Source: Strigamia acuminata (lineage: Eukaryota). Taken from it: a DNA stretch of 64,000 bases. The notes beneath the pieces are model-generated. The model searched no databases. It was given only the letters and a program-made list of their open reading frames with translations, and had not been told where the DNA came from. Shown here piece after piece: positions 24,421 to 43,103 of the stretch (the stretch's first letter is position 1; each line of letters opens with the position of its first letter). A program made the translations under genes and the position numbers. The stretch is from assembly GCA_949358305.1 (NCBI GenBank), contig OX442314.1, positions 2,604,001 to 2,668,000 on the forward strand, written 5' to 3'.

Positions 24421-25573
24421 TTATAGAGTCCCATTGATATTGATAACTTCACAGCAAAATCATTATATTTTGCAACTCTTTCTTTGGTTTCTTTTGAATT
24501 TTGATTCTCGTTTTTAACTTAACTAGATAAGCTAACAAAATCTGTTTTTTAATGCAAGCCCTGTTTAATATGTCCGAGTAAGTTTCCATCTTTCTCATGA
24601 TCAGTGTTGACAAGTTCGGAATATATTTTCTTGTCTTTGACGATGATGATGTGGTGGATTCCTCGAAAATGCATGGGAAATGTGAAATTCCACTGCACGG
24701 TCCTTTTCGTACGTACGTTCACGTGTTTGCACCCAATATAGAGGAGAATTTGCAAATTTAATAACTCTTCCTTTTGCAGTTTGCAATATTTTAAAAATAT
24801 TCAAATATTTAAATGTTTAAAAATATTTTAGAATGCTGCTTGTTTACAAAACCGATTTATTCTTGTTAATTTCTTTGTATAACGGATTTGAGCTGGACCT
24901 GGGATCATCCCTTGTCGGGAACTGTGTGGGAGAAGCCGATTTTGTAGAATTTAAAAACAATAATTTGGGTTTGTTTTTATAGCGTTTTGTTTGGTTGCAA
25001 AATCAAGAAATATTTATTTATTTATTTATCTCCAACAATACAATATACAATACAAAATGCAATTTTTATTCAATTTAGAAAGTAAAACATTCTTTCTAAA
25101 AAAATTCTGGTCCAAAATATGCAGTGTTTCAACTGTGTTGCGAGATGAAATATATCAGACACTTCGTCGTCTACATTTATAATACATATATTGTCCATTA
25201 AAGCATCTTTGTGCTAAACAAGAAGAAAAAAATAGAAAAAAACTACAGGTGACCCTCAATCTACAAACATCTTATATATAAATATATAAATATATAAATA
25301 TTACTTTAATTTACTTGGTGGTGCAATTTCTGCTTTTTGCCATTTTAATGTACCCTTTTCAATTTTCACTAAGAACACAGTCGGATCAACAGTTGCTAAT
25401 TCGGCCGGTTGTGGTTTCTGTTTTAAAAAACAAAATCTTATATAATGAAATAATTGAAGGAATTTAATTGATGGGACTTTAGTGAGCAAAGTAGGCTTCA
25501 CTTTGTTCTTCATTTTAGTAGATGCGCCTATCGCCGAATCCCACGTTGGATGGTGATCACAGTGATGATGAAC

Positions 25574-25669
25574 GTGTTGTAGTAAAATATGAGATCTATG
25601 AATACGCATTTAAGATGCAATTCTTCATTTCTACCTCAAGGAGGGATTTAAAGGGATGAAGGAGGAAAT
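25574..25669 (+). repeat. Left TIR (96 bp)
   Basis: Reverse complement of 42703-42798 with one mismatch. Confidence 0.9.
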
Positions 25670-25884
25670 GGCCCGATGGTATGAAGATGGATGAATGAAA
25701 AACAAAGAAAGAAAAGACTCAGATGGATTTCAGGAGCATAAAAAAATGATGCTTACCCTTCAATTTTTAAATAAATAAATAAATAAATTATATTAATTTA
25801 TTTAATTTATAAATAAATAAATAACTAATAAATTATATTAATTTAATTAATTAAAATAAATAACTACAAGTAATTCAATTCATT

Positions 25885-26138
25885 TACAAGTAATTCATTT
25901 ATTTGTAAATATTTAATAAAAAATCTTAAATGTGTAATTCAATTAATTTACAAGTAATTCATTTATTTGTAAATATTTAATAGAAAATGCTAAATGTGTA
26001 ATTCAATTAATTTACAAGTAATTCATTTATTTGTAAATATTTAATAGAAAATGCTAAATGTGTAATTCAATTAATTTACAAGTAATTCATTTATTTGTAA
26101 ATATTTAATAGAAAATGCTAAATGTGTAATTCAATTCA
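25885..26138. repeat. Left subterminal tandem repeat, 62-bp unit, about 4 copies
   Basis: tacaagtaattcatttatttgtaaatatttaatagaaaatgctaaatgtgtaattcaattaatt iterated. Confidence 0.9.
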
Positions 26139-26262
26139 TTAATTAATTAATTAATAAATAAAAAAATTCCTAAAAGTATGTTTCATTCTTAATCAATTTT
26201 CCTTTTTTTTTAAAATTTATTTTTCTTTTATATAAAAAAGAATAATGATTTAGATTCATTCT

Positions 26263-29200
26263 GTGCTCAGAATGAATAGATACAAATTCAGAAAATGTGT
26301 CGAGTTTTTAAAAGGAAAAAGAAAAAGGGGCGATTTATCTAGGGCTTTCAAGTTTAATGTCGGTTTGGATCAACTTTTGAAGAAATGCGGCGAATATAAA
26401 GATTTTGAGAAGATTATCTCAGTTCCGTATTATCTTCATAAAGGTATCTTTAATGGACAATCGCGCGAGTACATGGTCAATTTCGATGAAAGGATTTGTG
26501 AAATAGAAGATGTGATTAAAGATGCCGCTCCAAATATCCGTGCTTTGGTGGCGGAAGTTGCAGCCGACATGAATTCGTGCAAAGTGAGTGTTATGATGCA
26601 ATTGAGATATCGGCATTCCGTGAAATTGTCGCCAGCTCTTTTTTGGTACCGGGCCGGGCCGTTCGTGATGTTAACGGATGATGTTGATCCAATTTTGGAT
26701 TTGGCTGCGAGGCAACTGGCCGAAGAAAGTGCTGAATATGTAGAAACTCACGACTACTTCTGTTTAGTATGTGTAGAGGCTCTTAAAATTGATTTTGATA
26801 TTTTAAAACAGAAAGGTGAATGGGGCAAAGATGCCATCTTCTTTCCATTGGGTTCGAATATTGATTTATCGGCCGTCATTCGCAATAAGAAAGCGGTTTT
26901 GACTTTTAAAATGGATTTGCGAAAGTCTTTTGTTTGGGCCATTCTTGCATCTTTACATCCGGTAGCTATTAATGCCGAACGCATATCTAATTACTTGAAG
27001 TATGAGCACGAATTGAACTTGCAAGGCTTAGAATTTCCGCTGCCTTACAGAAACCTAGAAAAATTCCAGTCGCAGAATCCCGATATCGAAGTAACTATTT
27101 ATTATTGCAATGGCGATCGCGTGGAAAGATACGTTACCGTTCACAGAAACAGGAAACATCACGTAGATCTATTCTTCTACGGAAAGAATAGCTACGGACT
27201 TGTGAGGGATCCAAAACGGTTGCTGGGTTATTTTCCGTGTCACTACTGCGATAACCAATTCAAGAGCTGCGTGGGAAGAGACAAACATGCGTCGATATTC
27301 CACTCCGTTCCCGAAAAATCGTCGTATCAGGAACTGGACGAATGTCTGCAGAAAAAAAAGGCCGTTGTAAATGTCCAGAACTCGGATCAAAAAAGTTTTT
27401 TATGGTCTGTATTAGCTGCCTTGTATCCAGCCCCCGTTCATGTTTGCAGAGCGGATTATTACGAACAGTTTATGAATAAACTCAATCTCGAAGGGCTAGT
27501 TTTTCCCGTGGGGCCGAAAGAAGTGCTTACGTTCGAAAGACAGAATGTAAGTTTGAACATTAATGTATTCGAGTTGCTGCCCAAGTCCCGCATTGTTCCG
27601 ATTAAAGTAGATATTCTGACGAACCGCCTTATCACTATTAACCTACTGAAGAAACAAAATCATTACATGTGGATCAGGGATTTCTCGCGACTCTTGAGCG
27701 CCGGCAATAAACATAAGCGGTATTATTGCATGAACTGTATGAACGGGTTTTCCAGTGCCATAGTGCTCGTTAGGCATAAACGATACTGCGGGAAATATAA
27801 AGCCTGCAGCACTAAATGTCCCGACGAAGGAGCTATCTGTACGTTCAAAAGTGAGAAAAAAAAATATCCTTTACCGTACGTTTGTTACGCCGATTTCGAG
27901 GCATTCTTAGTACCTGATGCGGAGAGCGAACCCACTTTACATTCGATCATCATTAATTCTCACGAGCCGTGCGGTTATTCGTTTAAAGTAGTGTGCACTG
28001 AGAACGAAGCTTATTCCAGACCGTTACAGCTGTATAGAGGTCCGGATGCCGTCGATCATTTTTTGCAATCGTTGCGTGCGGAAATTAAAGCCGTGGTTCA
28101 GCAATTTTCCGAATTGGAACATAAACAATTCAATTCCAAAACGATGACTTCGCTTCAATGGATCGCTTATAGAAATGCAACAACGTGTTACTTATGCGGT
28201 GATGAATTCTTGGAAGAATTAAAAGGCTTGACAAAAGTCTTGGATCATAACCATTTCACCGGGAAGTTTCGTGGGGCCGCACACGCTAATTGTAACCTCA
28301 ACTACCATTGGCGGAAATCTGTGCCTATAATTTTCCATAATGGAAAAAAGTATGATTTTCATCTAATATTGCCGCATTTGACCGTCGCGTCAGAAAAAGT
28401 GACGATGATCGCCGAAAACTCGGAATTATACAAATCGTTCACGTTGAAAATCAAGACCGGTGATGATCCAAAACAGGTCGTAACGTTAAAATTCATGGAT
28501 AGTTTCCAATTTCTCGCGAGCAGTTTATCCAATTTGGCAAAAAATCTAGAGAAGTCGCAGTTCGCTGTCTTTCGAAGCGAGTTTAAAGGCGAGGAAATTG
28601 ATCTTCTGTTGAGGAAAGGAGTGTACCCTTACAGATATATGACCGGTTGGTCAAAATTTCAAGAAGATAAACTTCCGCCGAAAGAAGAATTTGAGAACAT
28701 AACCGACGACGAATACCAATATGCCCAGTTAGTTTGGAAAACGTTCGGAATTAAAAACATGGGCGAATATCACGATTTGTATCTGAAGACCGACACTCTG
28801 TTGTTGGCGGATATATTCGAACAGTTCAGAAAAATGTGTTTAAATCATTACAAGCTAGACCCCTGTCATTACATCACGTTTCCAAGTCTTTCTTGGGACG
28901 CTGCGCTGCTCATCACCGAAGTTAAATTGGAGCTTCTGTCTGATCCAGATATGTACATGTTTGTCGAACAAGGAATAAGAGGCGGTGTTGCCACTATCAG
29001 TCAACGCTACGCCAAAGCCAATAATCCTCTTCTGGCATCGGGATACGATTGCGAGAAACCAGAGAGTTACATCGTCTATTTGGATGCGAATTCCATGTAT
29101 TCCTGGGCAATGAGCAAACCGCTACCAGTTGGCAAGTTTGCCTTCGACGATAATGTAGCCGAATGGTCACAAGAACGGATTTTAAAAATGGGAGAGAACG

Positions 29201-30288
29201 ATACGATGGGATGCATCTTGGAAGTGGATTTGGGATATCCGCAAGAACTGCATTCGTCCCACAATTGTTTGCCTTTGGCTCCGGAAATGATACGTTCTGG
29301 GGATGACACTTCTCCCAGATTAATCCCGCATTTGCAAGCTCGTTGTAATTACATTCTGCATTACAGAGCTCTGCAATTGTACTTGTCCCTGGGCATGACG
29401 TTGATGAAAATAAAAAGAGTGCTGACGTTTGAGCAAAAACCGTGGCTGGCCAAGTATATCAAATTGAATATTGAGAAACGGAAGTCAGCTACCAGTGATT
29501 TTGAGCAGGAATTGGCGAAATTAGCTAACAATTCGGTCTTTGGAAAAACCTTGCAGGACGTGAGGAAATATAGACAATTTTATCTGGTAAACAATGCAAA
29601 AGACTTGAATACTCACGTCAACCACGTCGGTTTCAAAGGAAAAAAAAAATTAAACAAAAAACTGGTGTTGGTTGAACGGCGAAAGCTGGAATTGACGTTA
29701 GACAAACCTATTTACAGCGGTTTAACTATCCTGGACTTGTCTAAATGCTTGCTCTACGACTTTCATTACAACGTCATGAAAAAAAAATTCTCAGACAAGC
29801 TGAGATTGCTGATGACAGATACGGATAGTTTGATGTACGAAATAGAAGCTCCGTCAGTCTACTCGTTCTTCAGAGAAGAAATACCACAAGTGATGGATCT
29901 GTCTAATTACCACCCACCCGATGGCAGAAACAGGCGTGTCATAGGATGCTTCAAAGACGAGACTGCCGGCGAGCCGATAGAAGAGTTTGTAGGGCTAAGA
30001 GCCAAATGTTACGCTTATAACGTGAACGGGAAAACGAACATGCGATGTAAAGGCATAAAGAAGGCTGTCGTGGAGCAAGAGCTGGACTTGGAGGCGTACA
30101 AGAAGATATTGTTCGGTGAACGGGAGGCCCACAGATTGAAATTTGAAACGATCAAATCAAAACTGCACGATCTCACAACGGTCAAGGTGGACAAATTGGC
30201 ATTGTCGGCGAAAGACAAGAAACGAGTGATATTAGATGATTGTATTCATACTTTGGCTTATGGATACGTAAGCTTGGCGGAGGATTAA
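26263..30288 (+). CDS. pPolB: Protein-primed family B DNA polymerase with duplicated vOTU-like/zinc-finger module and EndoVII-like insert (first ATG 26272)
   Basis: YADFE, FHNGKKYD, DSFQFL, YLKTD, YLDANSMY, KLANNSVFGK, TDTDS; TATA-like tatataaaaa near 26230. Confidence 0.97.
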   Translation: MLRMNRYKFRKCVEFLKGKRKRGDLSRAFKFNVGLDQLLKKCGEYKDFEKIISVPYYLHKGIFNGQSREYMVNFDERICEIEDVIKDAAPNIRALVAEVAADMNSCKVSVMMQLRYRHSVKLSPALFWYRAGPFVMLTDDVDPILDLAARQLAEESAEYVETHDYFCLVCVEALKIDFDILKQKGEWGKDAIFFPLGSNIDLSAVIRNKKAVLTFKMDLRKSFVWAILASLHPVAINAERISNYLKYEHELNLQGLEFPLPYRNLEKFQSQNPDIEVTIYYCNGDRVERYVTVHRNRKHHVDLFFYGKNSYGLVRDPKRLLGYFPCHYCDNQFKSCVGRDKHASIFHSVPEKSSYQELDECLQKKKAVVNVQNSDQKSFLWSVLAALYPAPVHVCRADYYEQFMNKLNLEGLVFPVGPKEVLTFERQNVSLNINVFELLPKSRIVPIKVDILTNRLITINLLKKQNHYMWIRDFSRLLSAGNKHKRYYCMNCMNGFSSAIVLVRHKRYCGKYKACSTKCPDEGAICTFKSEKKKYPLPYVCYADFEAFLVPDAESEPTLHSIIINSHEPCGYSFKVVCTENEAYSRPLQLYRGPDAVDHFLQSLRAEIKAVVQQFSELEHKQFNSKTMTSLQWIAYRNATTCYLCGDEFLEELKGLTKVLDHNHFTGKFRGAAHANCNLNYHWRKSVPIIFHNGKKYDFHLILPHLTVASEKVTMIAENSELYKSFTLKIKTGDDPKQVVTLKFMDSFQFLASSLSNLAKNLEKSQFAVFRSEFKGEEIDLLLRKGVYPYRYMTGWSKFQEDKLPPKEEFENITDDEYQYAQLVWKTFGIKNMGEYHDLYLKTDTLLLADIFEQFRKMCLNHYKLDPCHYITFPSLSWDAALLITEVKLELLSDPDMYMFVEQGIRGGVATISQRYAKANNPLLASGYDCEKPESYIVYLDANSMYSWAMSKPLPVGKFAFDDNVAEWSQERILKMGENDTMGCILEVDLGYPQELHSSHNCLPLAPEMIRSGDDTSPRLIPHLQARCNYILHYRALQLYLSLGMTLMKIKRVLTFEQKPWLAKYIKLNIEKRKSATSDFEQELAKLANNSVFGKTLQDVRKYRQFYLVNNAKDLNTHVNHVGFKGKKKLNKKLVLVERRKLELTLDKPIYSGLTILDLSKCLLYDFHYNVMKKKFSDKLRLLMTDTDSLMYEIEAPSVYSFFREEIPQVMDLSNYHPPDGRNRRVIGCFKDETAGEPIEEFVGLRAKCYAYNVNGKTNMRCKGIKKAVVEQELDLEAYKKILFGEREAHRLKFETIKSKLHDLTTVKVDKLALSAKDKKRVILDDCIHTLAYGYVSLAED

Positions 30289-30304
30289 TATGACGATGGT
30301 TAGT

Positions 30305-31945
30305 TTAATCGTCCCATTTACTACGATCGAATCTGCAATACACGAGGGCGTAAACTTTTATTTCCGGACTCCAATCGGTGACAGTAGATATTCTAATGTG
30401 ATCGTTATCATCAAAATCTACTTTTTTCTCTAAATTGTACGTTCTAAAACATACCGGCATTTTACGTGGTGTTTTTGTAACATCTGTACGTGGAATATGG
30501 AACGTTCGACCATGCCCGTTAATAGACAAGATAAACTCAAACTCGTTAGGTATTACTGTGTATTCTGCTGTAGTAGCATACATGAATAAACTGATTCGCG
30601 TTATATGCCCGTAATGAGGAGTATAAAACTTCCCATTATGTGCAAATAATTTCCATTCTTCGGACACCTTCAAAAACCAATCGGTCCGTTGCGAATGTAG
30701 GAACCCTAGCACTAAATCGGCCTGTTCTTCTACTTCGGGAATATTTAGATTTGATATTTTGTCTTCTAATTCCGTCAATTTCTTATTAACTTCTATTTTG
30801 TTCGCTTCGATGTTAGAATTTAACGTGGCTTCTACCGTATCGACAGTGCCGGCCAAAGCAGCGGGAGCAAAACTTGATTCGTCAACGCTCGGAATTGCGC
30901 TAATTTTTGATATTTCTTCTTGAACGGATGTCAAAATGGACAACATGTTTTCCTGCAACGTTATTATTTGTTCGTTGGCTAATTTGATTTTATCGGTAAC
31001 CTCGTTGACGCTCGTTTGCATTTTATCTGACTTTACGGAATTTTCGTCTACGTACTCGTTTAATTTAAGTTTAGTCTCGTCCAGATCTTTTTGAATGGCA
31101 GTACTGACTGTGTCTAGCTCCGCTTTCGCCGCTTCAATTTTGGTTTTTAAGTCTTCCGTACTTTCGCTACTAACACCAAATTTTGCGGGTAAAGCTTTGA
31201 TTTTGGTTTCCAAGGCTTTAACCTCATTTTCCACACTTTTTTCTAACTTTTTTATATCATCCTGTGCTTGTTTTATCTTGTCATTTGATGCCTCGATGTT
31301 GGTTCTGATTTTGTCCACGTCTAAGTTCTGGATTTTGGTTTCTACTTCATCCAATGCTTCGTTTATTTTTGTATCATAATCGGTTTTATTCTGGATTAAG
31401 CTATTAGTCAACGTCTCCAACCCAGTCTTTAAATCTTCGATCGCAGATTCCAACTCGGATTTAACGTCATTTATCAAGTCTTTGATTTTGATTTCTAATG
31501 CGCTTATTTGTTTTTCGTCAACTTCTACACCACCGGAAGCAGTCGCATTATCTACTAATATCTTAATGTTCGCTTCTAATTCTTTAATTTTCTTAATCAA
31601 ATCTTGTTCCAACGTTCCATATTTTATAGTAGCATAGGCAATATCATTTTTGAGTTTATCAATATCCTTCGTATCAATTCCTTCGCCTTGCCCCGTTAGC
31701 TTACTAGCTTGATCTTGTACGGTACGTTTTAATGCGTTCAAATCGTTAATTATAGAATCGCAAGCAGCTTTCAGGGCATTTTTAGTCTTTGTGATCTCGT
31801 CAAAAATTTTTTTTTCTAGATCGGATAATGCATCGTAACCAACGTGATCTGCGAGAACCTCATCTACTTCTCGACGTTGACGTTTGCCCAATTTATGCAC
31901 TGCGTTAAGACGATAATCGTCTCCTAGTTTATTTACGCTTACCAT
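30305..31945 (-). CDS. Coiled-coil protein with globular C-terminus, putative fibre/spike
   Basis: About 400 aa heptad-rich stalk plus about 130 aa aromatic, beta-like head; last gene of the structural cassette. Confidence 0.55.
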   Translation of the reverse strand: MVSVNKLGDDYRLNAVHKLGKRQRREVDEVLADHVGYDALSDLEKKIFDEITKTKNALKAACDSIINDLNALKRTVQDQASKLTGQGEGIDTKDIDKLKNDIAYATIKYGTLEQDLIKKIKELEANIKILVDNATASGGVEVDEKQISALEIKIKDLINDVKSELESAIEDLKTGLETLTNSLIQNKTDYDTKINEALDEVETKIQNLDVDKIRTNIEASNDKIKQAQDDIKKLEKSVENEVKALETKIKALPAKFGVSSESTEDLKTKIEAAKAELDTVSTAIQKDLDETKLKLNEYVDENSVKSDKMQTSVNEVTDKIKLANEQIITLQENMLSILTSVQEEISKISAIPSVDESSFAPAALAGTVDTVEATLNSNIEANKIEVNKKLTELEDKISNLNIPEVEEQADLVLGFLHSQRTDWFLKVSEEWKLFAHNGKFYTPHYGHITRISLFMYATTAEYTVIPNEFEFILSINGHGRTFHIPRTDVTKTPRKMPVCFRTYNLEKKVDFDDNDHIRISTVTDWSPEIKVYALVYCRFDRSKWDD

Positions 31946-31979
31946 TTTTTTAATAGAAGGGAAAAAAACTATTTTTTAA

Positions 31980-32339
31980 TTATTTTTTTTCTTCTTTCCT
32001 CCATTTTTTTAAAACATATAAGCACAAATGGCCGCAAGTAATTTCGTCAAAATTTTGATACTGATTGTAATTGTATTTTATGTTGTCTCCCAGATAATCG
32101 TATAATTCCAACGGGGGTGGCAAGTCTCCGAAACTATCGAAGTACAGCTTCTTATTTCCAATTTTACTGTATGCCACCCAATGACTTCCGCTTTCGTGGT
32201 GCGTGTTCAAATTAACAATTCCACATTCTTTCGATCGTGGTTTGACGGGTAAAGTATCTCTCGAAAACACTCCTCTAAAAAATGAAATTTTCATTCGTCT
32301 GGCCAGTTCCTCCAACTGCAACGAATCTAGCGGTTTTAT
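31980..32339 (-). CDS. Adenain-like cysteine protease 1 (no ATG at the expected start)
   Basis: FRGVFSRD, VNLN..GSHWV, YFDSFG, Q..CGHLC; frame extends upstream as IKPLDSLQLEE. Confidence 0.9.
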   Translation of the reverse strand: MKPLDSLQLEELARRMKISFFRGVFSRDTLPVKPRSKECGIVNLNTHHESGSHWVAYSKIGNKKLYFDSFGDLPPPLELYDYLGDNIKYNYNQYQNFDEITCGHLCLYVLKKWRKEEKK

Positions 32340-32803
32340 TTTTTTGTCACCAGTGAGCCGTAAGGTTTCAAGTAAAAACCTTTTCCAGACTTGCGTTTCC
32401 GCGATTTTTTTTTTGCGAATTGCATTCCTTTACCTTCTGAAACTGCATTATGACGTTTTGTCTCATCGAGCATTCTCTTGTTGGTTTTTGCCTCATCGAC
32501 AGCTTTGGCAATTCCTGCCGCACCGCCAGCGAGACCGCCTAAAGCCCCCAATAGTGGAAGTAATAAAGGGAAAAATCCGCCAGATTGTTTAATTTGATTC
32601 GAAGGTATACTCAAAGTCATGCCTTTCTTTTTAGAACCGGCTTTTTTGATCTTGTTTATTTGTCTATCCGTAAGAGACAAGCCATGATTGCCGTTTAATT
32701 GTTCGTATTTCAATCTTAAATGCAAGGGTATCTTTTTTTTGACAGACTTGGATATTTTTCGTTGTTGATTCGGAGATAGATTCACTTTATGTATCTTATA
32801 CAT
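32336..32803 (-). CDS. Basic core protein with Gly-rich hydrophobic, possibly membrane-active segment
   Basis: Lys-rich; QSGGFFPLLLPLLGALGGLAGGAAGIAKAV..ETKRHN as seen in Polinton core proteins. Confidence 0.75.
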   Translation of the reverse strand: MYKIHKVNLSPNQQRKISKSVKKKIPLHLRLKYEQLNGNHGLSLTDRQINKIKKAGSKKKGMTLSIPSNQIKQSGGFFPLLLPLLGALGGLAGGAAGIAKAVDEAKTNKRMLDETKRHNAVSEGKGMQFAKKKSRKRKSGKGFYLKPYGSLVTKK

Positions 32804-32809
32804 TTTTAT

Positions 32810-32970
32810 TTCTTTTTTTATATACGTATATATTATTTTATATATATTTATTTATATATATTATATATTATATATTATATATATTATATATATATTATAT
32901 ATATATATATATTATATATATATTATATATTATATATATTTATATATATTTTATATACGTATATATTATT
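32810..32970. repeat. Degenerate (TA)n microsatellite
   Basis: Almost pure A/T alternation. Confidence 0.9.
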
Positions 32971-32977
32971 TTAAAAT

Positions 32978-34297
32978 CTAATATAATACTTCGATTTTAC
33001 CCTTGTCTAATTTCATAGTCATTAGTCTATCGCTTATTATCAAAGCGTAGGCTTTAGTGTCGGCAGGAACGGTTTCCGCAAATTTCATTTTTATTTGCAC
33101 GTCCATTATTCCGGTTTTCATTCTTTCGCTTTGTTTCGTGCAATCTATTACGATGAGCGGGTATATATTTCCGTACTCGTAAGTATTAAACGGTAAATCG
33201 TCGGCACCGTAATAGTCTTTTCTAAATTGAATGCAACTTTCTAAGAATTTACAGAAATTGGCTTTCTTAAAATCATTGTTACTGTCCAGATAAGGATATC
33301 GTTCCGAATTTAAGTAGGCATGAACTTCCGTTACATTGCAGTTATCAAATGTGGCTGGATTTTTTAATTGGTCGTCTCTTTTATTCGTTTGTAAAGCCAC
33401 GATGATGTAACGTGGTTTTTCTGACGTGCTGGTTGTTACCACTCTCCACGCGTGTTCCTTACTTTGTGGCACGTCTGTCATTTCGAACGACCAATGTCGA
33501 AAAGCTAATGGAACGTTCACCCCTCTATCTATGGCAGTGAGTAATCTATTCTTTTGGATATCGGACGGTAAGACGTGCGGCATCAACCAATATAACTGTT
33601 CGATGATAATTTTTCCAACGGGGGTGTTTACTTTTGGGGCGGGACCGGACTGTATCGCTTTAAAAATGGCATCGTTGTCGTGAGTTCGCATTAAGGTCAA
33701 AACTTGTTTGGCACCATATATGATTTTCGTATAGTCTTCGAAAAATCCCATTAAATGTGTTAACGGTACTAACAAAGAGAACGATCCTTTGGGCGTTGGC
33801 ATTATGTTGTAAAATATTCTACGTTCTAGAAAAGCGGGATTAAGAGTATCCGATGCTTCGCCCTTGTGATGATCTACTATCCATCCCATATTTCCGCTCG
33901 AATTTTGGAGCTGTTTGTACGTTAGTAAGCCCTTAATAGTGGTAGCATAACCCGGATAATTTATTTCGTCTATTAATTTATCACCTATGTGATATTTCAT
34001 GTTGCTGAACAAAAATGGCATAAAGTTATTTCCTAACGTTATTATATGGTCTTGTTCATCAGCTTGAGCGATAAGGTCTGTACCATCCGCTTTCACTAAT
34101 CTTCCTGTTATGCAGACGTAACTTTTATGAGGGTGAGTCCATACATCTTCGTTTTGAATGATTAATCGAATTTCGGAATTCACATTATTTAAATTAGTTC
34201 CTATAATAGGATAATATTCGTGGTAGTTGTAGGCATTAACAGATTCATCGACGACGAATGGTTGTTCGACATCCAAATAATTCTCGGAGACTTGCAT
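32978..34297 (-). CDS. Double jelly-roll major capsid protein
   Basis: 439 aa; THPHKSY, LMGFFEDYTKII, EKPRYIIVALQT, LNSERYPY, PLIVIDCTKQ. Confidence 0.92.
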   Translation of the reverse strand: MQVSENYLDVEQPFVVDESVNAYNYHEYYPIIGTNLNNVNSEIRLIIQNEDVWTHPHKSYVCITGRLVKADGTDLIAQADEQDHIITLGNNFMPFLFSNMKYHIGDKLIDEINYPGYATTIKGLLTYKQLQNSSGNMGWIVDHHKGEASDTLNPAFLERRIFYNIMPTPKGSFSLLVPLTHLMGFFEDYTKIIYGAKQVLTLMRTHDNDAIFKAIQSGPAPKVNTPVGKIIIEQLYWLMPHVLPSDIQKNRLLTAIDRGVNVPLAFRHWSFEMTDVPQSKEHAWRVVTTSTSEKPRYIIVALQTNKRDDQLKNPATFDNCNVTEVHAYLNSERYPYLDSNNDFKKANFCKFLESCIQFRKDYYGADDLPFNTYEYGNIYPLIVIDCTKQSERMKTGIMDVQIKMKFAETVPADTKAYALIISDRLMTMKLDKGKIEVLY

Positions 34298-34309
34298 CGT
34301 CGCTATTTT

Positions 34310-34512
34310 TTAATTACTTAATATATATATATTTTTTAAAAAGAATTACTTAATTAATTACTTAATATATATATTTTTTTAAAAAGAATTACTTAATTAA
34401 TTACTTAATATATATATATTTTTTAAAAGAGAATTACTTAATTAATTACTTAATATATATTTTTTTTAAAAAGAATTACGGTATTTAATTAATTACTTAA
34501 TATATATTTTTT
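34310..34512. repeat. About 42-bp AT-rich tandem repeat upstream of the MCP gene
   Basis: taattaattacttaatatatatattttttaaaaagaattac, about 5 copies. Confidence 0.88.
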
Positions 34513-34674
34513 TTAAAAAGAATTTATATATTCTCGATTATCTGGCCGTATCGAAGACTTTATAATTTTTATATTTCCACCTCTAATCGACGAGGGTGTC
34601 TTGACAGTGGCAGTGTTGGAGCTGGTGCTGGGGGTATTACTTGCCGTTACGTTCTTATTAAAAATTAACGGCAT
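34513..34674 (-). CDS. Small 53-aa ORF between penton and MCP (not in ORF track)
   Basis: aaaaacATG context; MPLIFNKN...SIRGGNIKIIKSSIRPDNREYINSF*; begins 10 nt after the penton stop. Confidence 0.55.
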   Translation of the reverse strand: MPLIFNKNVTASNTPSTSSNTATVKTPSSIRGGNIKIIKSSIRPDNREYINSF

Positions 34675-34684
34675 GTTTTTTTAA

Positions 34685-35455
34685 TTACGCTTTAATTAAT
34701 TTTCGTAAGTGTAAACGTGTAGTAAAAATTTCTCCTCTCAGATTCAGTGGTTTATCGTCTTGATCGGTCAACCAGATCCTGACTTCGTGTATTTTAGATT
34801 GATTTTTCACCGGCAAGTAAACTATGTTATACGGCATTTCTACTATTTTGAAGCCTGGCGGGACATTAGGAAAAAATGCGTATATGATCGGAGCCGTCTT
34901 CCCGTTTTTATAAGAGTCGGTAATAAGATCACAATGGACCAGGATAGTGTTAATGTGAAAAATGTTCACCGGATTAATGGATTCGCTTCTACCTACACCG
35001 TATTTCTTTGTTTTGAGACCGAATAATTTAGCCATACTTCTATTTTCCGAAAAATTGGCCCCGTAACTGGCATCGCTAATCACTAATGTCGTGGACAGAG
35101 TATTATAATTGGCCACGATGTCGATGAAAGGTGCGTCGTCTTTCATATTCCAGTGTCCTCTGGATTTCATTTCGGTATGTATGTACGAGATAATGTCGGC
35201 AAGTTCGTAACAACCCACGGGAACGATGATGTCGTAGTTGAGCGTACCTATAATACGAGCGGGGACGTTCACATCTACTTCAACAGTGTAGTATTTGAAC
35301 ACGTTGTTGTCCTCGGTTATATTTGGCATTGTGTAAAATGTCTCGAGGCTCACTAATCCCAATTCGTATTCGTCGTCACCCAAAATTAAAGGTGAGCTAA
35401 AAGTAGTGAGGAAATCCGATTTCGTACTGCTTAGTACGATAGACATGGTAATCAC
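34685..35455 (-). CDS. Minor capsid protein (penton)
   Basis: YELGLVSL, PNITEDNN, VPVGCYE, INTILVHCDLITDSY, PPGFKIVE, DQDDKPLNLRGE. Confidence 0.9.
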   Translation of the reverse strand: MITMSIVLSSTKSDFLTTFSSPLILGDDEYELGLVSLETFYTMPNITEDNNVFKYYTVEVDVNVPARIIGTLNYDIIVPVGCYELADIISYIHTEMKSRGHWNMKDDAPFIDIVANYNTLSTTLVISDASYGANFSENRSMAKLFGLKTKKYGVGRSESINPVNIFHINTILVHCDLITDSYKNGKTAPIIYAFFPNVPPGFKIVEMPYNIVYLPVKNQSKIHEVRIWLTDQDDKPLNLRGEIFTTRLHLRKLIKA

Positions 35456-35473
35456 GATTATTATTACTTTTTT

Positions 35474-36697
35474 TTAATTCGCGAGAATTTTCTTTCGCAT
35501 GTTTTCAAACTTGGTTTTATCGAGGATTCTTTCCTCTTTCAGTTCCATAAGTATTTCCACAATTTCGTTGTCGTGAGACTGGTTTCCAGCATCCCGTGAT
35601 GCATGCAACAATCGCAGCCTGTCTATTAATTCGTCCGGGTTATTGTAATACTTGTAGTCTACGGAGTTGTGCGGCCGAAACGTTTTCGTGACACCTTTGC
35701 CAGCTTGGGGTGTGTTCTTGCCAGCTTGGGATGTTGTCTTTGGACGATTTTTATACAGTTCCCAAATTCGTTTAACCACTGTCATATACTTTTCTCCTTT
35801 ACTAGACTTTGGCATATTAGTTGCCGAATTGTTCTTTTTAAATAACCCTTGACTAGAAATGAGAATCCTGCCGTAATCCACAAAATTTTGGTCTGTCATA
35901 GTTCCTTCAATCGGTGGAAGTTTTTGCATGAGGAGATGCATTAATGTTGGAGTTCGTGGATACTTTACGTTTTTCACAAGTATATGAGTTGGAAAGAATT
36001 TAACTTCTTCGACTCCTATTTTAAATTTTGAATCATACGGGTCATATCTAATTCCAAACACCGTATCTAAATGAGCCGCATTTTCGGCGTAATATTTCAA
36101 GAACTCTTGCTGTACTGCGTTTTCCGATTCTTTGTCCGTCATTTTTAATTCGAGACTTTTTCTTATGTCGCGTTGATATTTTATATTTGGAAGCACATGA
36201 GCAAATTGCCAATCATCATCATCAACATCATCTTCTACGAGGCTCGTCTCTCCCTCTCTTTGAAATGAAACATTTTCCTCTTCATTCCCATCATCCCGGC
36301 CAAACTTAAGTCGAGGAGTTTCAATTTTACTCGAGGACAAGCTTTGGCGACTGAACTGCCTTTTTAAGGATGAACTTTCCCAAGGTAAGAGCGGTGATTC
36401 TAGATCCATTTCGTACTTTAAATTATGGGACTTACTTGTAATGGGTGTGAAAGATGACAACTCTCTTTTAATGGGAGTGGAAGGTGAGGATTTGAAAGTC
36501 GTAGGTGGTAGAGCAAGGGGTGGAGATAGTTGCTGCTGCTGCTGCGGCAGGCTATGCAATGCAGCAGTTACAGGTTTGAAGAATGCACCGAGCGCTTCAT
36601 CTTCGGATCCTCTGTTTAACTTATCTTGCAGAAACTTTTTTTTCAAGCTCTGTTTTAATTTCTCGTAATTTCCACGCTGCTGTTTATTCATGTTCAT
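35474..36697 (-). CDS. Conserved Polinton protein (PZ-like)
   Basis: FKPVT, DTVFGIR, C-terminal YYNNPDELIDRLRLLHASRDAGNQSHDNEIVEILMEL. Confidence 0.75.
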   Translation of the reverse strand: MNMNKQQRGNYEKLKQSLKKKFLQDKLNRGSEDEALGAFFKPVTAALHSLPQQQQQLSPPLALPPTTFKSSPSTPIKRELSSFTPITSKSHNLKYEMDLESPLLPWESSSLKRQFSRQSLSSSKIETPRLKFGRDDGNEEENVSFQREGETSLVEDDVDDDDWQFAHVLPNIKYQRDIRKSLELKMTDKESENAVQQEFLKYYAENAAHLDTVFGIRYDPYDSKFKIGVEEVKFFPTHILVKNVKYPRTPTLMHLLMQKLPPIEGTMTDQNFVDYGRILISSQGLFKKNNSATNMPKSSKGEKYMTVVKRIWELYKNRPKTTSQAGKNTPQAGKGVTKTFRPHNSVDYKYYNNPDELIDRLRLLHASRDAGNQSHDNEIVEILMELKEERILDKTKFENMRKKILAN

Positions 36698-37361
36698 TTT
36701 TTAAAAATGGGGAAAATTTATTTTTATATCTCCCGCTCGACATAGACTTGGTCTTGTCAATGGTGAGAAAGCCAAACGTATCATCATCCCAACACGACTT
36801 ACACATGTCTCTGAATCGAACGTACGTCATGTCCGTTCCAACATGGTTGTCAAAAACGTGTTTCATGTTTCTTTCGTCTTGTCTGAACATGATTATTAAA
36901 TTGGCATTGTCTCTTATCACCTGTTTTGGGATTCGGCTATAAGTCTGACACAAGTAAAAAGAGTCTACGTTACTATGACGGCCCTGGGCAAAATATTTCT
37001 CAATATTATGTTGCTTGTCGGTCATCACATCATCAAACACAAAAATAGACTTGTTCACGGATTTATCAAAAAGTTGTTCGGGAGACGGCACATCCTCGTT
37101 GCTCGGGAAGAAATGAGCTACCTGTTTGCCCAATTCCGATTCTAGATCCTCGAACAACTCTCTTAACCGCTCGTATTTTGGTTGAAATAAAGTTTTAGAA
37201 AACACCATCAGCTTGTCGAACCGTAGCCAATGCAGGAAGTTTAGCAACAGATTCGTTTTCCCACATTCAGCCGGGCCACACATGATGCATCTTATGTTTT
37301 TTGGCAGAATCGACTTATCACATTTATCCAAACGCCCCGTGTCAAAATTTATGACATTCAT
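36684..37361 (-). CDS. A32/FtsK-like packaging ATPase
   Basis: Walker A GPAECGKT, Walker B FVFDD, GRH, IRDNAN. Confidence 0.93.
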   Translation of the reverse strand: MNVINFDTGRLDKCDKSILPKNIRCIMCGPAECGKTNLLLNFLHWLRFDKLMVFSKTLFQPKYERLRELFEDLESELGKQVAHFFPSNEDVPSPEQLFDKSVNKSIFVFDDVMTDKQHNIEKYFAQGRHSNVDSFYLCQTYSRIPKQVIRDNANLIIMFRQDERNMKHVFDNHVGTDMTYVRFRDMCKSCWDDDTFGFLTIDKTKSMSSGRYKNKFSPFLKNEHE

Positions 37362-37397
37362 TTTTTATATTCCCGTAATAAAAAAAAGAAGACAAAC

Positions 37398-37562
37398 ATG
37401 TTTTGCGTTAAATGTAAAAAGTCTACTCCTACCGGCACGTTGGAAATGGGAGTCACTAAAAACAACAGAGCCTACAAAAGAGGTAAATGCTTGGCATGCG
37501 GGACCTTGAAATATCAGTTCATAAAAAAAAAAAATCTCCAGCAACCGGAAAAGGACTTTTGA
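37398..37562 (+). CDS. 54-aa zinc-ribbon protein, DUF5679-like (not in ORF track)
   Basis: MFCVKCKK...KNNR..RGKCLACGTLKYQFI; caaacATG context. Confidence 0.75.
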   Translation: MFCVKCKKSTPTGTLEMGVTKNNRAYKRGKCLACGTLKYQFIKKKNLQQPEKDF

Positions 37563-37891
37563 ATAAACTAATCAATAAATTACCGGTAGAAATGCATATC
37601 CCTGGGTACAATTATTGCGGTCCAGGCACAAAATTAGATAAGCGTTTAGCTAGAGGTGATAAAGGCATAAACCCATTGGATGAAGCGTGCAAGCTGCACG
37701 ACATTGCTTACATAAATGAGAACTTAGAAGCCAGACACGAAGCAGACAGAAAGTTGGTCGAAGCATGTGTTTTAATCATCTCCGATCCAACAGTCAGTTT
37801 AAGCACAAAATTAGCCGCCAAAGCAATCAAAGCAACGTTCAATACCAAACTTAAACTGGGAATGGGACTAAAAAAAAAAAAAAATGCCTGA
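37520..37891 (+). CDS. Parvovirus VP1u-type phospholipase A2 domain protein
   Basis: PGYNYCGPGT calcium loop and NPLDEACKLHDIAY catalytic HD. Confidence 0.9.
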   Translation, partial: HKKKKSPATGKGLLNKLINKLPVEMHIPGYNYCGPGTKLDKRLARGDKGINPLDEACKLHDIAYINENLEARHEADRKLVEACVLIISDPTVSLSTKLAAKAIKATFNTKLKLGMGLKKKKNA

Positions 37892-38837
37892 CATAGAACA
37901 ACTGGTATCTGAATTACATAAGCCGGCACGTAGGCATTACGTCAGACGTCCGGTCGTATCTTTTGCAATCAACGACTTATGGCAGATCGATTTAGTCGAA
38001 TTGATACCTTTTTCCCGTGTAAACAAAGGTTATAAATACTTATTAACGGTTATAGATGCGTTCTCTAAATATGCGTATGCGGTTCCCATCAAATCAAAGA
38101 CTGGCAAAGAGGTAACCGCTGCATTTGAAAAGGTGCTTGTCAAAGCGGGGAATAAGGGGCCGGTCAACATGGCATCCGATTGGGGGAAAGAATTCTACAA
38201 TTCCCATTTCAAGGCACTGGTCAAAAAGTTCAACATCAACCATTTTTCCACACACTCGCCGTTGAAAGCGAGCATGGTCGAGCGGTTCAATCGCACGCTC
38301 AAAGAGCGCATGTACAGGCATTTTACTTTGAAAGGTTCGAGGAATTGGATTACTATCTTACCCCAATTGATGACCCGTTATAACTCTTCGGTTCACCGTA
38401 CGACCAACATGAAACCCAAAGATGTGGCTCCCAAACATGAAAAGGCGCTCAGACTAAAATTACTTCCCGAACCAGCAACGTCCAAGCCTAAATTCAAAGT
38501 GGGCGACCGAGTGCGTATTTCCAAATCCAAATCCATATTTGACAAAGGGTTTTTGCAAAATTGGACTAATGAAATCTTTACAATTGATAAAGTGGACACG
38601 ACGTATGAACCTCCAATTTTCAAATTGAAAGACAGTTTGGGAGAATCGATCGAAGGTTCCTTTTACCGTGAAGAACTCCAAAAAACTGAAACCAGGGTAG
38701 ATGATCCCTACTTGATCGAGAAAGTCATTAGAAAAAAGAAAAACAGCGATGGATCATGGAAGTACCTAGTGAAATGGGTCGGCTACGATCAGAAGCATAA
38801 TTCATGGGTGGATGATCTCATCGACATTAAAAAATGA
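37884..38837 (+). CDS. Retroviral-type integrase with C-terminal chromo-like domain
   Basis: WQIDLV, IDAFSKY, SDWGKEF, VERFNRTLK; IEKVI..YLVKWVGY..NSWV. Confidence 0.96.
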   Translation: MPDIEQLVSELHKPARRHYVRRPVVSFAINDLWQIDLVELIPFSRVNKGYKYLLTVIDAFSKYAYAVPIKSKTGKEVTAAFEKVLVKAGNKGPVNMASDWGKEFYNSHFKALVKKFNINHFSTHSPLKASMVERFNRTLKERMYRHFTLKGSRNWITILPQLMTRYNSSVHRTTNMKPKDVAPKHEKALRLKLLPEPATSKPKFKVGDRVRISKSKSIFDKGFLQNWTNEIFTIDKVDTTYEPPIFKLKDSLGESIEGSFYREELQKTETRVDDPYLIEKVIRKKKNSDGSWKYLVKWVGYDQKHNSWVDDLIDIKK

Positions 38838-39253
38838 ATAACGTGGAAATTTACAACTGGGCGAAGAATAAACTACGTATCGCTCACTTCAACAACGTGT
38901 TGCCCATCGATTGCTTGAAACCGCTCGCGAATCACCGGGGCAAGAATGAAAGCTTCGTCATCAATTTAGACCCATCGACGGGTGGTGGTACCCATTGGGT
39001 CAGCTTGTATCTTTGCAATGACAGAGGCATATACTTTGATAATTTGGGAAACGTTCCACCTAAAGAGATCATTGATTTTGTCGGAAGAGACGTTACCCTA
39101 GATTATGCTACAAAAGAAATGTATTCGTTGACAAAAGAAGATTCTTGCGGGATGTTTTGCCTCTTTGCGCTCTATTTAGCAGCCAATCTTAATCTCAGGC
39201 AGAATACAATCATTAAAATCATTCGAGGAATGAATAATCTTGAGTTGTTGTAA
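38834..39253 (+). CDS. Adenain-like cysteine protease 2
   Basis: INLD..GGTHWV, YFDNLG..PP, CGMFC; ATGA overlap with the integrase stop. Confidence 0.85.
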   Translation: MNNVEIYNWAKNKLRIAHFNNVLPIDCLKPLANHRGKNESFVINLDPSTGGGTHWVSLYLCNDRGIYFDNLGNVPPKEIIDFVGRDVTLDYATKEMYSLTKEDSCGMFCLFALYLAANLNLRQNTIIKIIRGMNNLELL

Positions 39254-39485
39254 AGTAAACCCAATTTCCATTTTTCTCAAAAAAATGAAATTATTTAAGA
39301 AGTTAAAACAATCCTAATTTGAAATCAACAAAGATTCGCACAAAACCTTGCGGAAAGTCTGCAAACAAGCACGGGCATGTGTTAAAGTCCGTGTCAAATC
39401 AAAAATGAAACCGTAACAAAAATTTTCTATATATAAAAAAGCAACATTATTATATTCACTTCAATTTGAGAAAGAAAAGAATTAA

Positions 39486-39767
39486 ATGTATCTCTTTCAA
39501 CTCCAACAGAACAAAACTACCGATGAAAAGAAAATAATTTTGAAACATTTATCCTTATTTTTATTGGTCCATTATGGTGGCTCAATAGATCAGAGAACCG
39601 ATTCGTTACTTTTGTGGCGACCGGCATTTCAGATCAAGATTCAAACTCTGGTGGAGAAACTTGGAAGATTTTCCAGTGAGAATATTGAACACGTCAAATA
39701 CGTACACGACAATGTAACTATCGCCGAAATCCAGGAATTGGCTGAAATAAGTCATTTATTCGGCTAA
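39486..39767 (+). CDS. Hypothetical 93-aa Polinton accessory protein
   Basis: ATG ORF with tatataaaaa box about 55 nt upstream. Confidence 0.55.
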   Translation: MYLFQLQQNKTTDEKKIILKHLSLFLLVHYGGSIDQRTDSLLLWRPAFQIKIQTLVEKLGRFSSENIEHVKYVHDNVTIAEIQELAEISHLFG

Positions 39768-40166
39768 ATGCTACTCTATATATATAATGCGGCATTATGT
39801 AATTAATTATCACAAGTTTTTAAAATAATATTTATATTGTTAATTTTACTGTTTTTTCTCTGAATAAGGAAATAGTCTTTTGATTAATTGGGTGTAATTA
39901 CAAATTATATTTCACATATTAAATCTGGAAATAAAAATGAATATGTGAATAAACACCTGATTTAATTCAAAACACGTGACCATGTAATTATATTAAAGCA
40001 GCGTGACTCATCCGGCAAATGCATAATAAATAAATAAATTTTAAAAAATATAAATAAAATTGCTTTTAAATAAATTTTCAATTAAAAATAAATTAAAAAT
40101 ATAGTATGTAAACATCATTTTAATTAAATTTTCAATTAAAAATAAATTATTTCTCAGCTGAATAAC

Positions 40167-40457
40167 ATGGAATTTTTTTGTGCAACTTATGAAAAAAGTG
40201 AGAAAATATTACTGCAAATAATCTTTGAACTTATAAGTAGATGGGGGGCTGAAATTACAGATATAAATAATTTTGCATTTGTATTTCGCATTGATGGACA
40301 ATTTCCTGAACTAAGCAAAATAATAAAAAGAGCAAGAATAATACATGATTCTCTCAACTCAGAAACAAGAGTACACATAAGGCAGTTGTATCAAATTATT
40401 CCGGGCAAGAAAATTAAGGATATAGATTTTTTTGATGAAGAGAATGAATGTTTATAA
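40167..40457 (+). CDS. Hypothetical 96-aa Polinton accessory protein
   Basis: aacATGG context; open frame within very AT-rich flanks. Confidence 0.55.
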   Translation: MEFFCATYEKSEKILLQIIFELISRWGAEITDINNFAFVFRIDGQFPELSKIIKRARIIHDSLNSETRVHIRQLYQIIPGKKIKDIDFFDEENECL

Positions 40458-40460
40458 AAA

Positions 40461-40637
40461 ATGGAGTTTTATGAACATACTAGAGCATTCTTACGCCATT
40501 CATTTAACAGTGTCTTGTTTAATTGTGACGTATGTAATCATTGCAGTGCCCCCTGTTCTGCTAACTCGTTTGTCAATGTAAAAAAAAATTTTGAAAAACA
40601 AATAAAATGTGTAAAAGAATTTTTAATTAAAAGCTGA
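40461..40637 (+). CDS. Hypothetical 58-aa Cys-rich protein
   Basis: aaaATGG 3 nt after previous stop; CDVCNHCSAPC; AATAAA overlaps the stop. Confidence 0.45.
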   Translation: MEFYEHTRAFLRHSFNSVLFNCDVCNHCSAPCSANSFVNVKKNFEKQIKCVKEFLIKS

Positions 40638-41414
40638 ATAAAATTATTTTTCTTTACAATTTATTATTCATTTATTTCTGATTGAGTCACTTTGAAAACC
40701 TGTTTTTCTGACTCATTAAAAAAAAATCTCTAAAGGCTATTTTTGTTTTTAAAGAGCAAAAGCCTTCGGGGGGGGGGAAATTTAATTGCTGGTGAGGAAA
40801 AAAATATTTTCATTCGACTGTTTAACATTTTTTTTTTGTTTTTTTTTGTTTTGATAAATGTTTATCAATTTGTTTGTTTGATCACATATCCGTTTTTCCT
40901 ACAAGATATATTACATGCTGTCACATGGCTTACTTTTAACACAGCTGGTTTTGGAAAGTTCCATTACTTAGAAGGAATAAAATTTTCATTTGTAAATGAA
41001 AATTATTAATTATAAAAGTTAAAATGGAATTAAAAAGAATCAAATGAGAATTCATTTGATTTTTTCTAATGGATAGTTTTAATTCTAATTCCATTTCATT
41101 TTTAAATTGGTTTAATAAATTCCAACTTTAATATCTATTAACAAATAAAAACTTTCTTTCAATTAACTTTTTCTTATTTAAAAATAAGTTTTATTTTTTT
41201 TTGTAAATAGAATTAAAATAAGGAATTAATAACAACACACAGGACAAAAAAATCAAACGAATTCTCATTTTAAATTGTGTTAATACATTTCAACTCTTTT
41301 GCAATTAAACTGGTCTTTCAACTAGGTCACATTTCATTTGTGAATAAAAAAAATTTCCCCAGGGGCAATTGAATTTTTATTTAAAATGAAATTGTTTTTA
41401 GGTCAAATAAAGAT

Positions 41415-41614
41415 AATTCAATTTATTTGCAGATAAATGTATTAAGATTTTTTAATAAAAAAGTCAATTGAAATGTTTAATAGGAAATGTAAAAATTCTT
41501 AATACATTTATTTGTAAATGAAATGAATTAGACATTTTACATTTCCTATTAAACATTTCAATTGACTTTTTTATTAAAAAATCTTAATACATTTATTTAC
41601 AAATGAATTGAATT
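41415..41614. repeat. Inverted repeat with about 80-bp arms and 40-bp spacer
   Basis: 41415-41494 complementary to 41535-41614. Confidence 0.85.
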
Positions 41615-41684
41615 TTAATTAAAATAAGAAATAATTGCAAATATAAATACATGAAATAAGAAATAAGTACAAATATAAATATAG

Positions 41685-42270
41685 AAGCTTGTGGAACTTA
41701 GTCAAAATATCGAACCAAGCGTGATGGACATAGCCGGAATATCAAACCAAGCTTGTGGAACTTAGTCAAAATATCGAACCAAGCGTGATGGACATAGTCA
41801 AAATATCAAACCAAGCTTGTGGAACATAGCCGAAATATCAAACCAAGCTTGTGGCACATAGTCAAAATATCAAACCAAGCTTGTGGAACATAGCCGAAAT
41901 ATCAAACCAAGCTTGTGGAACATAGCCGAAATATCAAACCAAGCTTGTGGAACATAGCCGACAGTGCTGGACTGGCCCGGCGGGCTACCGGGAGTTTCCC
42001 GGTGGCCCGTGGCCGCTGTGGCCTGTCGCGGCCCGCTGTAGCCTGTCCCGCCTTCATTATTTGTGGCCCGGACACCCAGATTTCCCGGCCATAAATTTGA
42101 TCCCAGTCCAGCCCTGATAGCCGAAATATCAAACCAAGCTTGTGGAACATAGTCAAAATATCACCAACGAAGCGTGTTGGACATAGCCAAATTTCACCAA
42201 CAAAGCGTGTTGGACATAGCCAAAATTTCACCAATGAAGCGTGTTGGACATAGCCAAAATTTCACCAAGT
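41685..42270. repeat. Right subterminal minisatellite, 32-bp unit drifting to 29-30 bp
   Basis: aagcttgtggaacatagccgaaatatcaaacc iterated. Confidence 0.92.
41962..42116. mobile_element. 155-bp hAT-type MITE
   Basis: 14-bp TIRs CAGTGCTGGACTGG / CCAGTCCAGCCCTG; perfect 8-bp TSD ATAGCCGA. Confidence 0.92.
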
Positions 42271-42702
42271 GCAGATTCAACATGTGATCAAACACCCTGA
42301 CCCATACGTGCAATATAGCATTCGACTCACCATCTCGAGACAAACCGTTTAAAATTACCCCCACTTTTAATTTTGCCGTAACCCCCACTTCCAATACCCT
42401 CAGAAAACTTTAAACAATGGCAAATGTTGCCCACTGTCATTGGAAGTCCATACGATTTACCCCCACTTTCACTTTAATTACCTCCCACTTTCCTAAAAAT
42501 GGTTAATATGTGTGATTTTGCCAACAAAGTACATGTAAACAAATCACGTCATTTATTCATTTTCCCTCCAGTAAAATGAAACGTTCCAAAAAAACCAGTT
42601 GTGATAGAAGCAGGTGAAGTCAATGACCTACTTCCTTTTAAAACTCTTTAATTCAAACAGCAGAATAATTTAATGCACTTTCCCATGGCCTTGCCTCGGG
42701 TG

Positions 42703-42798
42703 ATTTCCTCCTTCATCCCTTTAAATCCCTCCTTGAGGTAGAAATCAAGAATTGCATCTTAAATGCGTATTCATAGATCTCATATTTTACTACAACAC
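42703..42798 (-). repeat. Right TIR (96 bp)
   Basis: Reverse complement of 25574-25669. Confidence 0.9.
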
Positions 42799-43103
42799 AC
42801 TCTCAAACACTGCAACTTTTTTCGAACATTTCAGCTTTTTCCGAAATCGCAACCCGATTTCAAACACCCATAAAAAGAAAACCATACACAGGAAACTTCC
42901 CAAACTTTTTTGGCACTTCCTTGACTCACCCCTAAGACACTCACCAAGTTTCAGCACCTCGCACCTTCTGATACTTAAGTAACACACTCTCAAACACTGC
43001 AACTTTTTCTAACACTGCAACTTTTTCCGAAATTGCTACCCGACTTCAAACACCCATAAAAAGAAAACCATACACAGGAAACTTCCCAAACCTTTTTTGG
43101 CAC
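42794..43103. repeat. About 187-bp tandem repeat running into the gap
   Basis: aacacactctcaaacactgcaacttt at 42794 and 42981. Confidence 0.8.

Follow-up and report, generated by a model that had tools for sequence, protein, structure and literature searches.

The DNA analysed here is a 64,000-nt stretch of the Strigamia acuminata genome (GCA_949358305.1, contig OX442314.1, positions 2,604,001 to 2,668,000; hereafter the window, to which all coordinates refer), in which a 17 kb Polinton/Maverick (alpha-adintovirus-like) element occupies positions 25560..42812, surrounded by LTR retrotransposons. The element is bounded by terminal inverted repeats of 117 nt (25560-25676 and 42696-42812, 92% complementary), and inspection by eye of the arm ends as detected, which may not be the true ends, revealed no 6-bp target-site duplication. 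Pfam matches identified the hallmark genes of Polintons, namely PolB (PF03175), an rve integrase (PF00665) with a chromodomain (PF00385) and an A32-like ATPase (PF04665), and the element also encodes a PLA2 domain and a second adenain-like protease. The gene for the double jelly roll major capsid protein (32978..34297, minus strand; PF21738, E 3e-64) is the upstream neighbour of the core gene, and a penton candidate at 34685-35446 has no meaningful Pfam match and is assigned by the atlas to unnamed viral clusters at 0.98. Directly downstream of the core-linked protease is a 546-aa coiled-coil protein (30305-31945, minus strand) with only sub-threshold Pfam matches, possibly a fibre or cement protein. 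An array of ~31-nt repeats (41680-42230), broken by a GC-rich palindromic insert, was noted by eye near the right end of the element, and there is an inverted repeat at 41408-41621.

Two further features of the gene complement were observed. PLA2 and pX, usually a single gene (PLA2X), are here split onto opposite strands, and two adenain-like proteases occur within the one element. The second of these proteases (38834..39253, plus strand; PF00770, E 0.001, below the cut-off) has its own ATG, and its start and the stop of the integrase gene (37884-38837, plus strand) share 4 nt; the A6 run ahead of this overlap is out of slippery phase. With its ordinary start, this protease is an internal contrast to the core-linked one. 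A separate -1 junction was also noted on the plus strand, where a DUF5679 zinc-ribbon ORF (37398-37562, 54 aa, E 2e-9) overlaps the PLA2 frame (37487-37891) at an in-phase A12 run. This may be a frameshift, a run-length mutation or an assembly error; among the loci from relatives, DUF5679 was found upstream of 0 of 33 PLA2 motifs. Judged by eye, some published PLA2X proteins (PMC11071296) appear to have a Cys-pair domain of this kind at their start, in one frame.

The core gene (32336..32803, minus strand) encodes 155 aa, of which residues 74-99 form a putative pX-like segment; the tail is rich in K/R, and the gene is not fused to PLA2. The adenovirus protein X family PF05829 matches 11 of 12 aligned core members (best E 9e-6), and the core matches the PDB PX chain 9lr9_E with an E value of 0.015. 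The window's own PF05829 score (E 0.064, 13.6 bits) does not reach the Pfam threshold of 25, and its protein is put forward as adenovirus protein X (pX/pre-mu)-like. Starrett et al. (PMC8502044) describe PLA2X genes, to whose X portion the pX segment corresponds; in the window it stands apart from PLA2.

The adenain-like cysteine protease domain (31980..32339, minus strand; 119 aa counted from an Ile codon) lies in the -1 frame relative to the core. The catalytic residues His53, Asp68, Gln95 and Cys102 are invariant in 24/24 aligned rows, and the features that define adenain, a His-Asp/Glu-Cys triad, an oxyanion Gln and the fold, were all found, with a profile match to 1avp (E 9e-5) and a PF00770 score below the Pfam cut-off. 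A predicted model (pLDDT 89) has a helix at residues 6-15 and resembles the adenovirus protease (TMq 0.75-0.81; Z 12.5, rmsd 2.3, 113 residues aligned), model residues 2-119 being superimposed on adenain 1-139, with the residues ahead of the first Met aligned to adenain from its residue 1. The closest core homologue (P0242, 60%) and the closest protease homologue (P0001, 72%) have a longest contig of 1507 nt each; P0001 was called from the same internal Met as is present here and the P0242 core ends in a lysine run and a short tail, which suggests that they have the same layout as the window. Among the 120 longer protease homologues listed (P0121-P0240), counted by hand, 86 carry an integrase domain and 82 have the protease N-terminal, and in-frame protease-integrase fusions appear to be common in another lineage.

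At its 3' end the core ORF reads GTG ACA AAA AAA TAA on the minus strand, and the protease frame, open from 32429 to 31980, reads ATA AAA CCG CTA GAT from 32339, the core stop TAA (32336..32338) overlapping the first protease-frame codon ATA (32339-32337). Directly before the stop lies a heptamer A_AAA_AAA (32339..32345, minus strand), which conforms to the X_XXY_YYZ slippery pattern in the phase of the core gene and inside the overlap of the two frames, and which we regard as the likely shift site. The first in-frame ATG of the protease (32292..32294, minus strand; first letter at 32294) is residue 16 from the Ile codon and stands behind helix 1, after the segment PLDSLQLEE and with no ATG before it. 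The first-pass annotation of this DNA had reported these letters, the fit of the heptamer and the missing start codon, all of which were confirmed when the minus strand was re-read. A second candidate for the shift, a distal A10 tract with two in-phase heptamers (32405..32414, minus strand) that the first-pass annotation had not noted, lies 22-23 codons before the core stop, and the protease frame is also open from there, for which the chance of 23 open codons is about 0.15. Runs of at least seven A are frequent in the element (17 and 20 on its two strands) and the protease ORF's own end is an in-phase A7, so that sequence alone proves nothing; the excess over chance lies in the conservation among relatives described below and not in the A7 itself.

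Contigs from four public sequencing runs span the junction, at depths of 2635 (X1, record 4), 3006 (X2, record 9), 8782 (X3, record 19) and 4.1 (X4, record 28), and in the 40 of 43 difference rows covered there was no other letter or indel at 32336-32345. The length of the A7 run had been singled out beforehand for checking, and it is unchanged in the contigs of all four runs, where a form with core and protease in frame was not seen. Because high-depth contigs of public runs carry it, the junction cannot be put down to misassembly or to a private mutation. The four runs come from at most three studies and may include the source of the window itself; sister copies were read as contigs, which drop rare variants. 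The A10 tract has a length variant at a depth of 167 of 6201 in X1, which is the sole form in X4 (depth 4.1), and such variants may be sequencing noise.

In order to compare the junction among relatives we assembled 13 loci from viral contigs and, out of 464 metagenome hits to an insect-type protease profile, the best 80, giving 90 anchored loci including the window after removal of two duplicates (L018 and L040, from the same contigs as L001 and L006) and two loci without an anchor (L013, L068). A single-sequence scan of the viral contigs gave no match, a scan with the core alignment gave one contig that was already among the loci, and a second protease scan gave nine repeats and one partial match (L103); rows L014, L095-L102 (repeats) and L103 were excluded. 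Lineages were counted as one locus per 75% cluster (n=36), with a stricter set at 65% clustering (n=22). The sample is skewed to insect-type proteases, and shared ancestry inflates the counts, the lineages not being fully independent. A tree built by a fast method from 101 columns, with one too-short row omitted and 36 of its 84 forks open, placed the window outside all starred groups, and since the window is thus unplaced no order of events is claimed.

A core gene was found upstream of the protease in 70 of the 90 anchored loci, with the protease in the -1 frame in 51, in frame in 10 and in +1 in nine; the other 20 show no upstream core, six of these having <200 nt of upstream DNA. The search for the same -1 overlap in related Polintons, proposed in the first-pass annotation, was therefore positive in 51/70 core-linked loci. 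Within the overlap an in-phase X_XXY_YYZ heptamer is present in 50 of the 51 -1 loci, the exception being a broken copy, at a median protease identity among -1 loci of 54%. When counted by lineage, 32/36 carry a heptamer in the last 10 core codons, compared with 6/74 other ORF ends, 7/36 protease ends, 17/134 internal core windows and 13-14/36 when the phase was slid, and at 65% clustering the count is 20/22 for the last 10 core codons and 22/22 for anywhere in the overlap. The window's proximal A7 belongs to the same class of position as these heptamers. The commonest heptamer in the family is A_AAA_AAC, where the window has A_AAA_AAA, and runs of exactly six A are in slippery phase in 17/18 cases. 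Codon choice in the terminal X-K-N motif is similarly biased: the third base of the four-fold codon is A in 16/16 (background 129/365), Lys is AAA in 20/21 (background 589/845) and Asn is AAC in 19/21 (background 97/276), the two exceptions to the Asn AAC pattern carrying U-rich heptamers. Such U-rich heptamers (T_TTT_TTA/G) were observed in L032, L046, L052 and L078, in two separate parts of the tree. A clade of four further loci (L011, L087, L090, L091) has its sole slippery site farther upstream, 22-25 codons ahead of the core stop; the -1 frame is open from this site, and the dual-coding overlap conserves C-I-(I/L)-N in the protease frame. The distal placement is like that of the window's A10.

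The distribution of Met codons follows the presence of the core gene. No Met precedes helix 1 in 29/36 lineages and one is found near the junction in 7/36, whilst the proteases without an upstream core have one in 14/14. Of the Met-less lineages, 18 have their first Met no earlier than strand 1, eight have it within helix 1 or its linker, and three have none before the catalytic His. Core and protease form one continuous ORF in seven loci, which makes a fusion a plausible product; some of these continuous ORFs are likely run-length errors or dead copies. Runs of at least nine A occur in 16 of the 19 core-linked loci that are not in -1 and in 17 of the 51 that are, from which it follows that long runs are unstable in DNA or assembly, and L008 and L009 have identical protease rows and differ in frame relation and run length.

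RNA structure that might stimulate a shift was sought downstream of the sites. In the window a weak hairpin (32293..32326, minus strand) starts 12 nt after the A7; it is neither conserved nor above shuffled sequences (z -0.5 and -1.1), and its pseudoknot-like score was reached by 25/500 shuffles. Across 32 sites the mean z for 3' structure was +0.24, with 1/32 below -2, stem and pseudoknot scores in relatives were no better than those of downstream windows, and consensus folds were empty. A 3' hairpin or pseudoknot lying 5-9 nt past the slip site, which marks the canonical type, was thus not found in the local structure searched. The other canonical marks of a -1 site, an in-phase heptamer in the overlap, a downstream -1 ORF with no usable start other than perhaps the near-cognate ATA of this copy, and silent-site conservation, were all found. 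The site would therefore be expected to work like a canonical -1 site, and for want of the 3' structure we do not class it as one. Two features that accompany the heptamers, and that are candidate pause signals, are a 0-frame stop 0-3 codons past the site in 25/32 lineages and a basic tail with a mean of 7.3 K+R in 30 codons.

Taken together, the comparative evidence in relatives strongly favours the proposal of the first-pass annotation that the protease is expressed from the core gene by a -1 shift, and we consider it probable that ribosomal frameshifting yields a minor core-protease fusion. The junction itself appears real and conserved, and is likely to be functional. On this reading translation would usually terminate at the stop codon of the pX-like core gene, and at the A-run a minority of ribosomes would move back by one base and read on into the protease. 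As to where they slip, the A7 at 32345-32339 is somewhat favoured, with two tRNA-Lys slipping on A_AAA_AAA and a predicted product of about 274 aa, and the upstream A10 tract is a considerably less likely site. The pause would be caused by the neighbouring stop codon or by the basic tail of the nascent chain, and not by RNA structure. By analogy with retroviral Gag-Pro, the fusion would keep the protease scarce relative to the core protein and bring it into the particle together with the core, a packaging role that fits the fusions of this protease family to other proteins (the integrase-bearing 86/120 above). Set against frameshifting are that the A7 run is not phase-informative, that 19/70 core-linked loci are not in -1 and that the second protease has a normal start.

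One form of the adenain-type cleavage site is (MIL)xGG. The form given in 10.1101/341131 is (MIL)xGxG. Either motif occurs between pX and the junction in 7/36 lineages, and no such self-release motif was found between pX and the junction in the window's tail, so that release of the protease from the fusion is not accounted for.

Near-cognate initiation would offer a different route to the same protease, with terminating ribosomes, or ribosomes scanning a separate message, starting at the overlapping ATA and the A-run serving as start context. The ATA stands at the Met position of the free-standing homologues, the element's ordinary starts come after runs of A5-A13 and the ATA has such an A-rich context, and a 4-nt stop/start overlap of the same kind is present between integrase and protease 2. 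Moreover, an A6 run before a start codon has the phase of a slippery heptamer, so that the phase test (17/18) cannot separate initiation from a shift. What separates them is the codon that follows the in-phase A6 in relatives, which is CTA in eight, CTG in three, CTC in two, CGA in two, CGG in one and CTT in one; 14 of these 17 cannot initiate, and the initiation reading fails in relatives. Over all Met-less sites the codon is not near-cognate in 20/25, and the four loci with U-rich heptamers also count against it. As the window's own codon is ATA, initiation there keeps a small chance for this copy, and overall we judge it improbable.

About equally improbable is transcriptional slippage, whereby stuttering of the polymerase at the A7 or A10 would join the two frames in a minority of messages, giving the same fusion by another mechanism. 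The long runs (≥9 A) present in a third of the -1 loci (17/51), the failure to find an RNA stimulator and the A10 length variants in contigs, possibly sequencing noise, would all suit a slipping polymerase. However, the commonest class of site has only A6 and then C, and the exact-six runs keep codon phase (17/18) with AAC preferred (19/21); a polymerase should not read codon phase, though phase can be inherited.

Initiation at the internal Met16, giving a 104-aa protein, has in its favour a real in-frame ATG and the calling of P0001, the closest database homologue, from the same Met. Since helix 6-15 precedes this Met and is aligned to the adenain N-terminus, a start there would, on the predicted model, remove a structural part of the fold; in addition Leu4, ahead of Met16, is conserved in at least 90% of rows, eight other ATGs lie between the core start and Met16 (nine including Met16), and most relatives have no Met at this position. 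We regard such a start, which had been named beforehand as a finding that would speak against frameshifting, as very unlikely. Likewise, of the other outcomes so named, neither an in-frame form at the A7 nor a conserved splice acceptor was seen.

Scarcely credible is a dead gene or an assembly error, in which the start was lost or a homopolymer misread, leaving the work to protease 2: degradation is common in endogenous Polintons (PMC8097293), the element does have a second protease and the L008/L009 pair differs as described, but the same junction is found in the deepest contigs of four runs from up to three studies, the catalytic residues are intact and the layout is kept across 22-36 lineages at a median protease identity of 54%. 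Loss of the start codon in a single copy was rejected on the evidence of the run contigs and the family-wide layout, and so was splicing, the commonest AG offset near the site occurring in only 9/32 lineages in a region that is A-rich.

The retroviral gag-pro -1 frameshift (MMTV, HTLV/BLV) uses A_AAA_AAC sites. The Polinton arrangement is alike in having a structural core gene with X_XXY_YYZ near its end, the protease in the -1 frame and a predicted minority fusion that would be packaged; it differs in belonging to a dsDNA element, in having an adenain-type cysteine protease, in the close 0-frame stop (25/32 lineages) and in that no 3' hairpin or pseudoknot was detected. In adenoviruses protein X and adenain are encoded by separate genes with their own starts. 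The likeness to these viruses lies in the pX-like segment, the adenain fold from residue 1 and the catalytic residues, whereas the Polinton domain covers only adenain 1-139. The adenain entry for AC_000008 begins with Met (supplement of PMC11071296). As in the alpha adintoviruses and Polintons described in PMC8502044, the element has PolB, an rve integrase with chromodomain, a packaging ATPase, a double jelly roll capsid protein, adenain, PLA2/pX modules and terminal inverted repeats; unlike those elements, as presented there, it has PLA2 and pX in separate genes on opposite strands and two proteases. The single 'frameshift' in the text of PMC8502044 concerns a degraded human relic.

The first-pass annotation had suggested that the strategy may already be described for some adintoviruses, and this stands in part. 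The supplement of a 2024 preprint (PMC11071296) labels proteins 'PLA2X-Adenain' for Adinto3309, Adinto12800, Adinto8540 and AdintoBK011003, entries that likewise have a pX-bearing core gene joined to adenain, and so the fusion has been annotated; the labels stand in the protein list only, with no description, comment, statistics or test accompanying them there. For Adinto3309 the list gives both a short PLA2X ending K-N and a PLA2X-Adenain continuing from that point, which implies a shift at the same motif, and for Adinto12800 too it gives a short form and a fusion. Five of the 30 adenain entries listed are pX-linked, and each of these is truncated, lacks a Met or is fused. The window differs from these entries in that its pX is separate from PLA2 and its site is an A7 plus stop. 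Where the preprint's text speaks of slippage, it is of a hypothetical -1 slippage for Penton and Hexon-Adenain, with PLA2 not mentioned. No paper on a core/pX-to-protease frameshift in Polintons was found in our search, outside which lay subscription journals, some supplements and GenBank features, and a fuller earlier description may exist. The arrangement has thus been annotated before and, as far as we found, not described; new here are the evidence from silent sites across the family and the apparent absence of a stimulator.

More broadly, we suggest tentatively, at slightly less than even chances, that a branch of animal Polintons and adintoviruses has conserved a structure-free -1 shift at a bare heptamer next to the core stop, with the pause arising from termination or the basic tail and the site rebuilt repeatedly as A6C, A7 or longer, U-rich or distal forms, i.e. 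a gag-pro strategy in eukaryotic dsDNA elements. Gene models of Polinton proteases often begin at an internal Met or have no start, and a conserved frameshift, if true, would correct them and predict the core-protease fusion as the real protein. It would also be evidence from selection for continued production of virion proteins in fixed ratios by these elements and, for the biology of recoding, would provide dozens of natural compact -1 sites with no detectable stimulator, ready for use in reporters.
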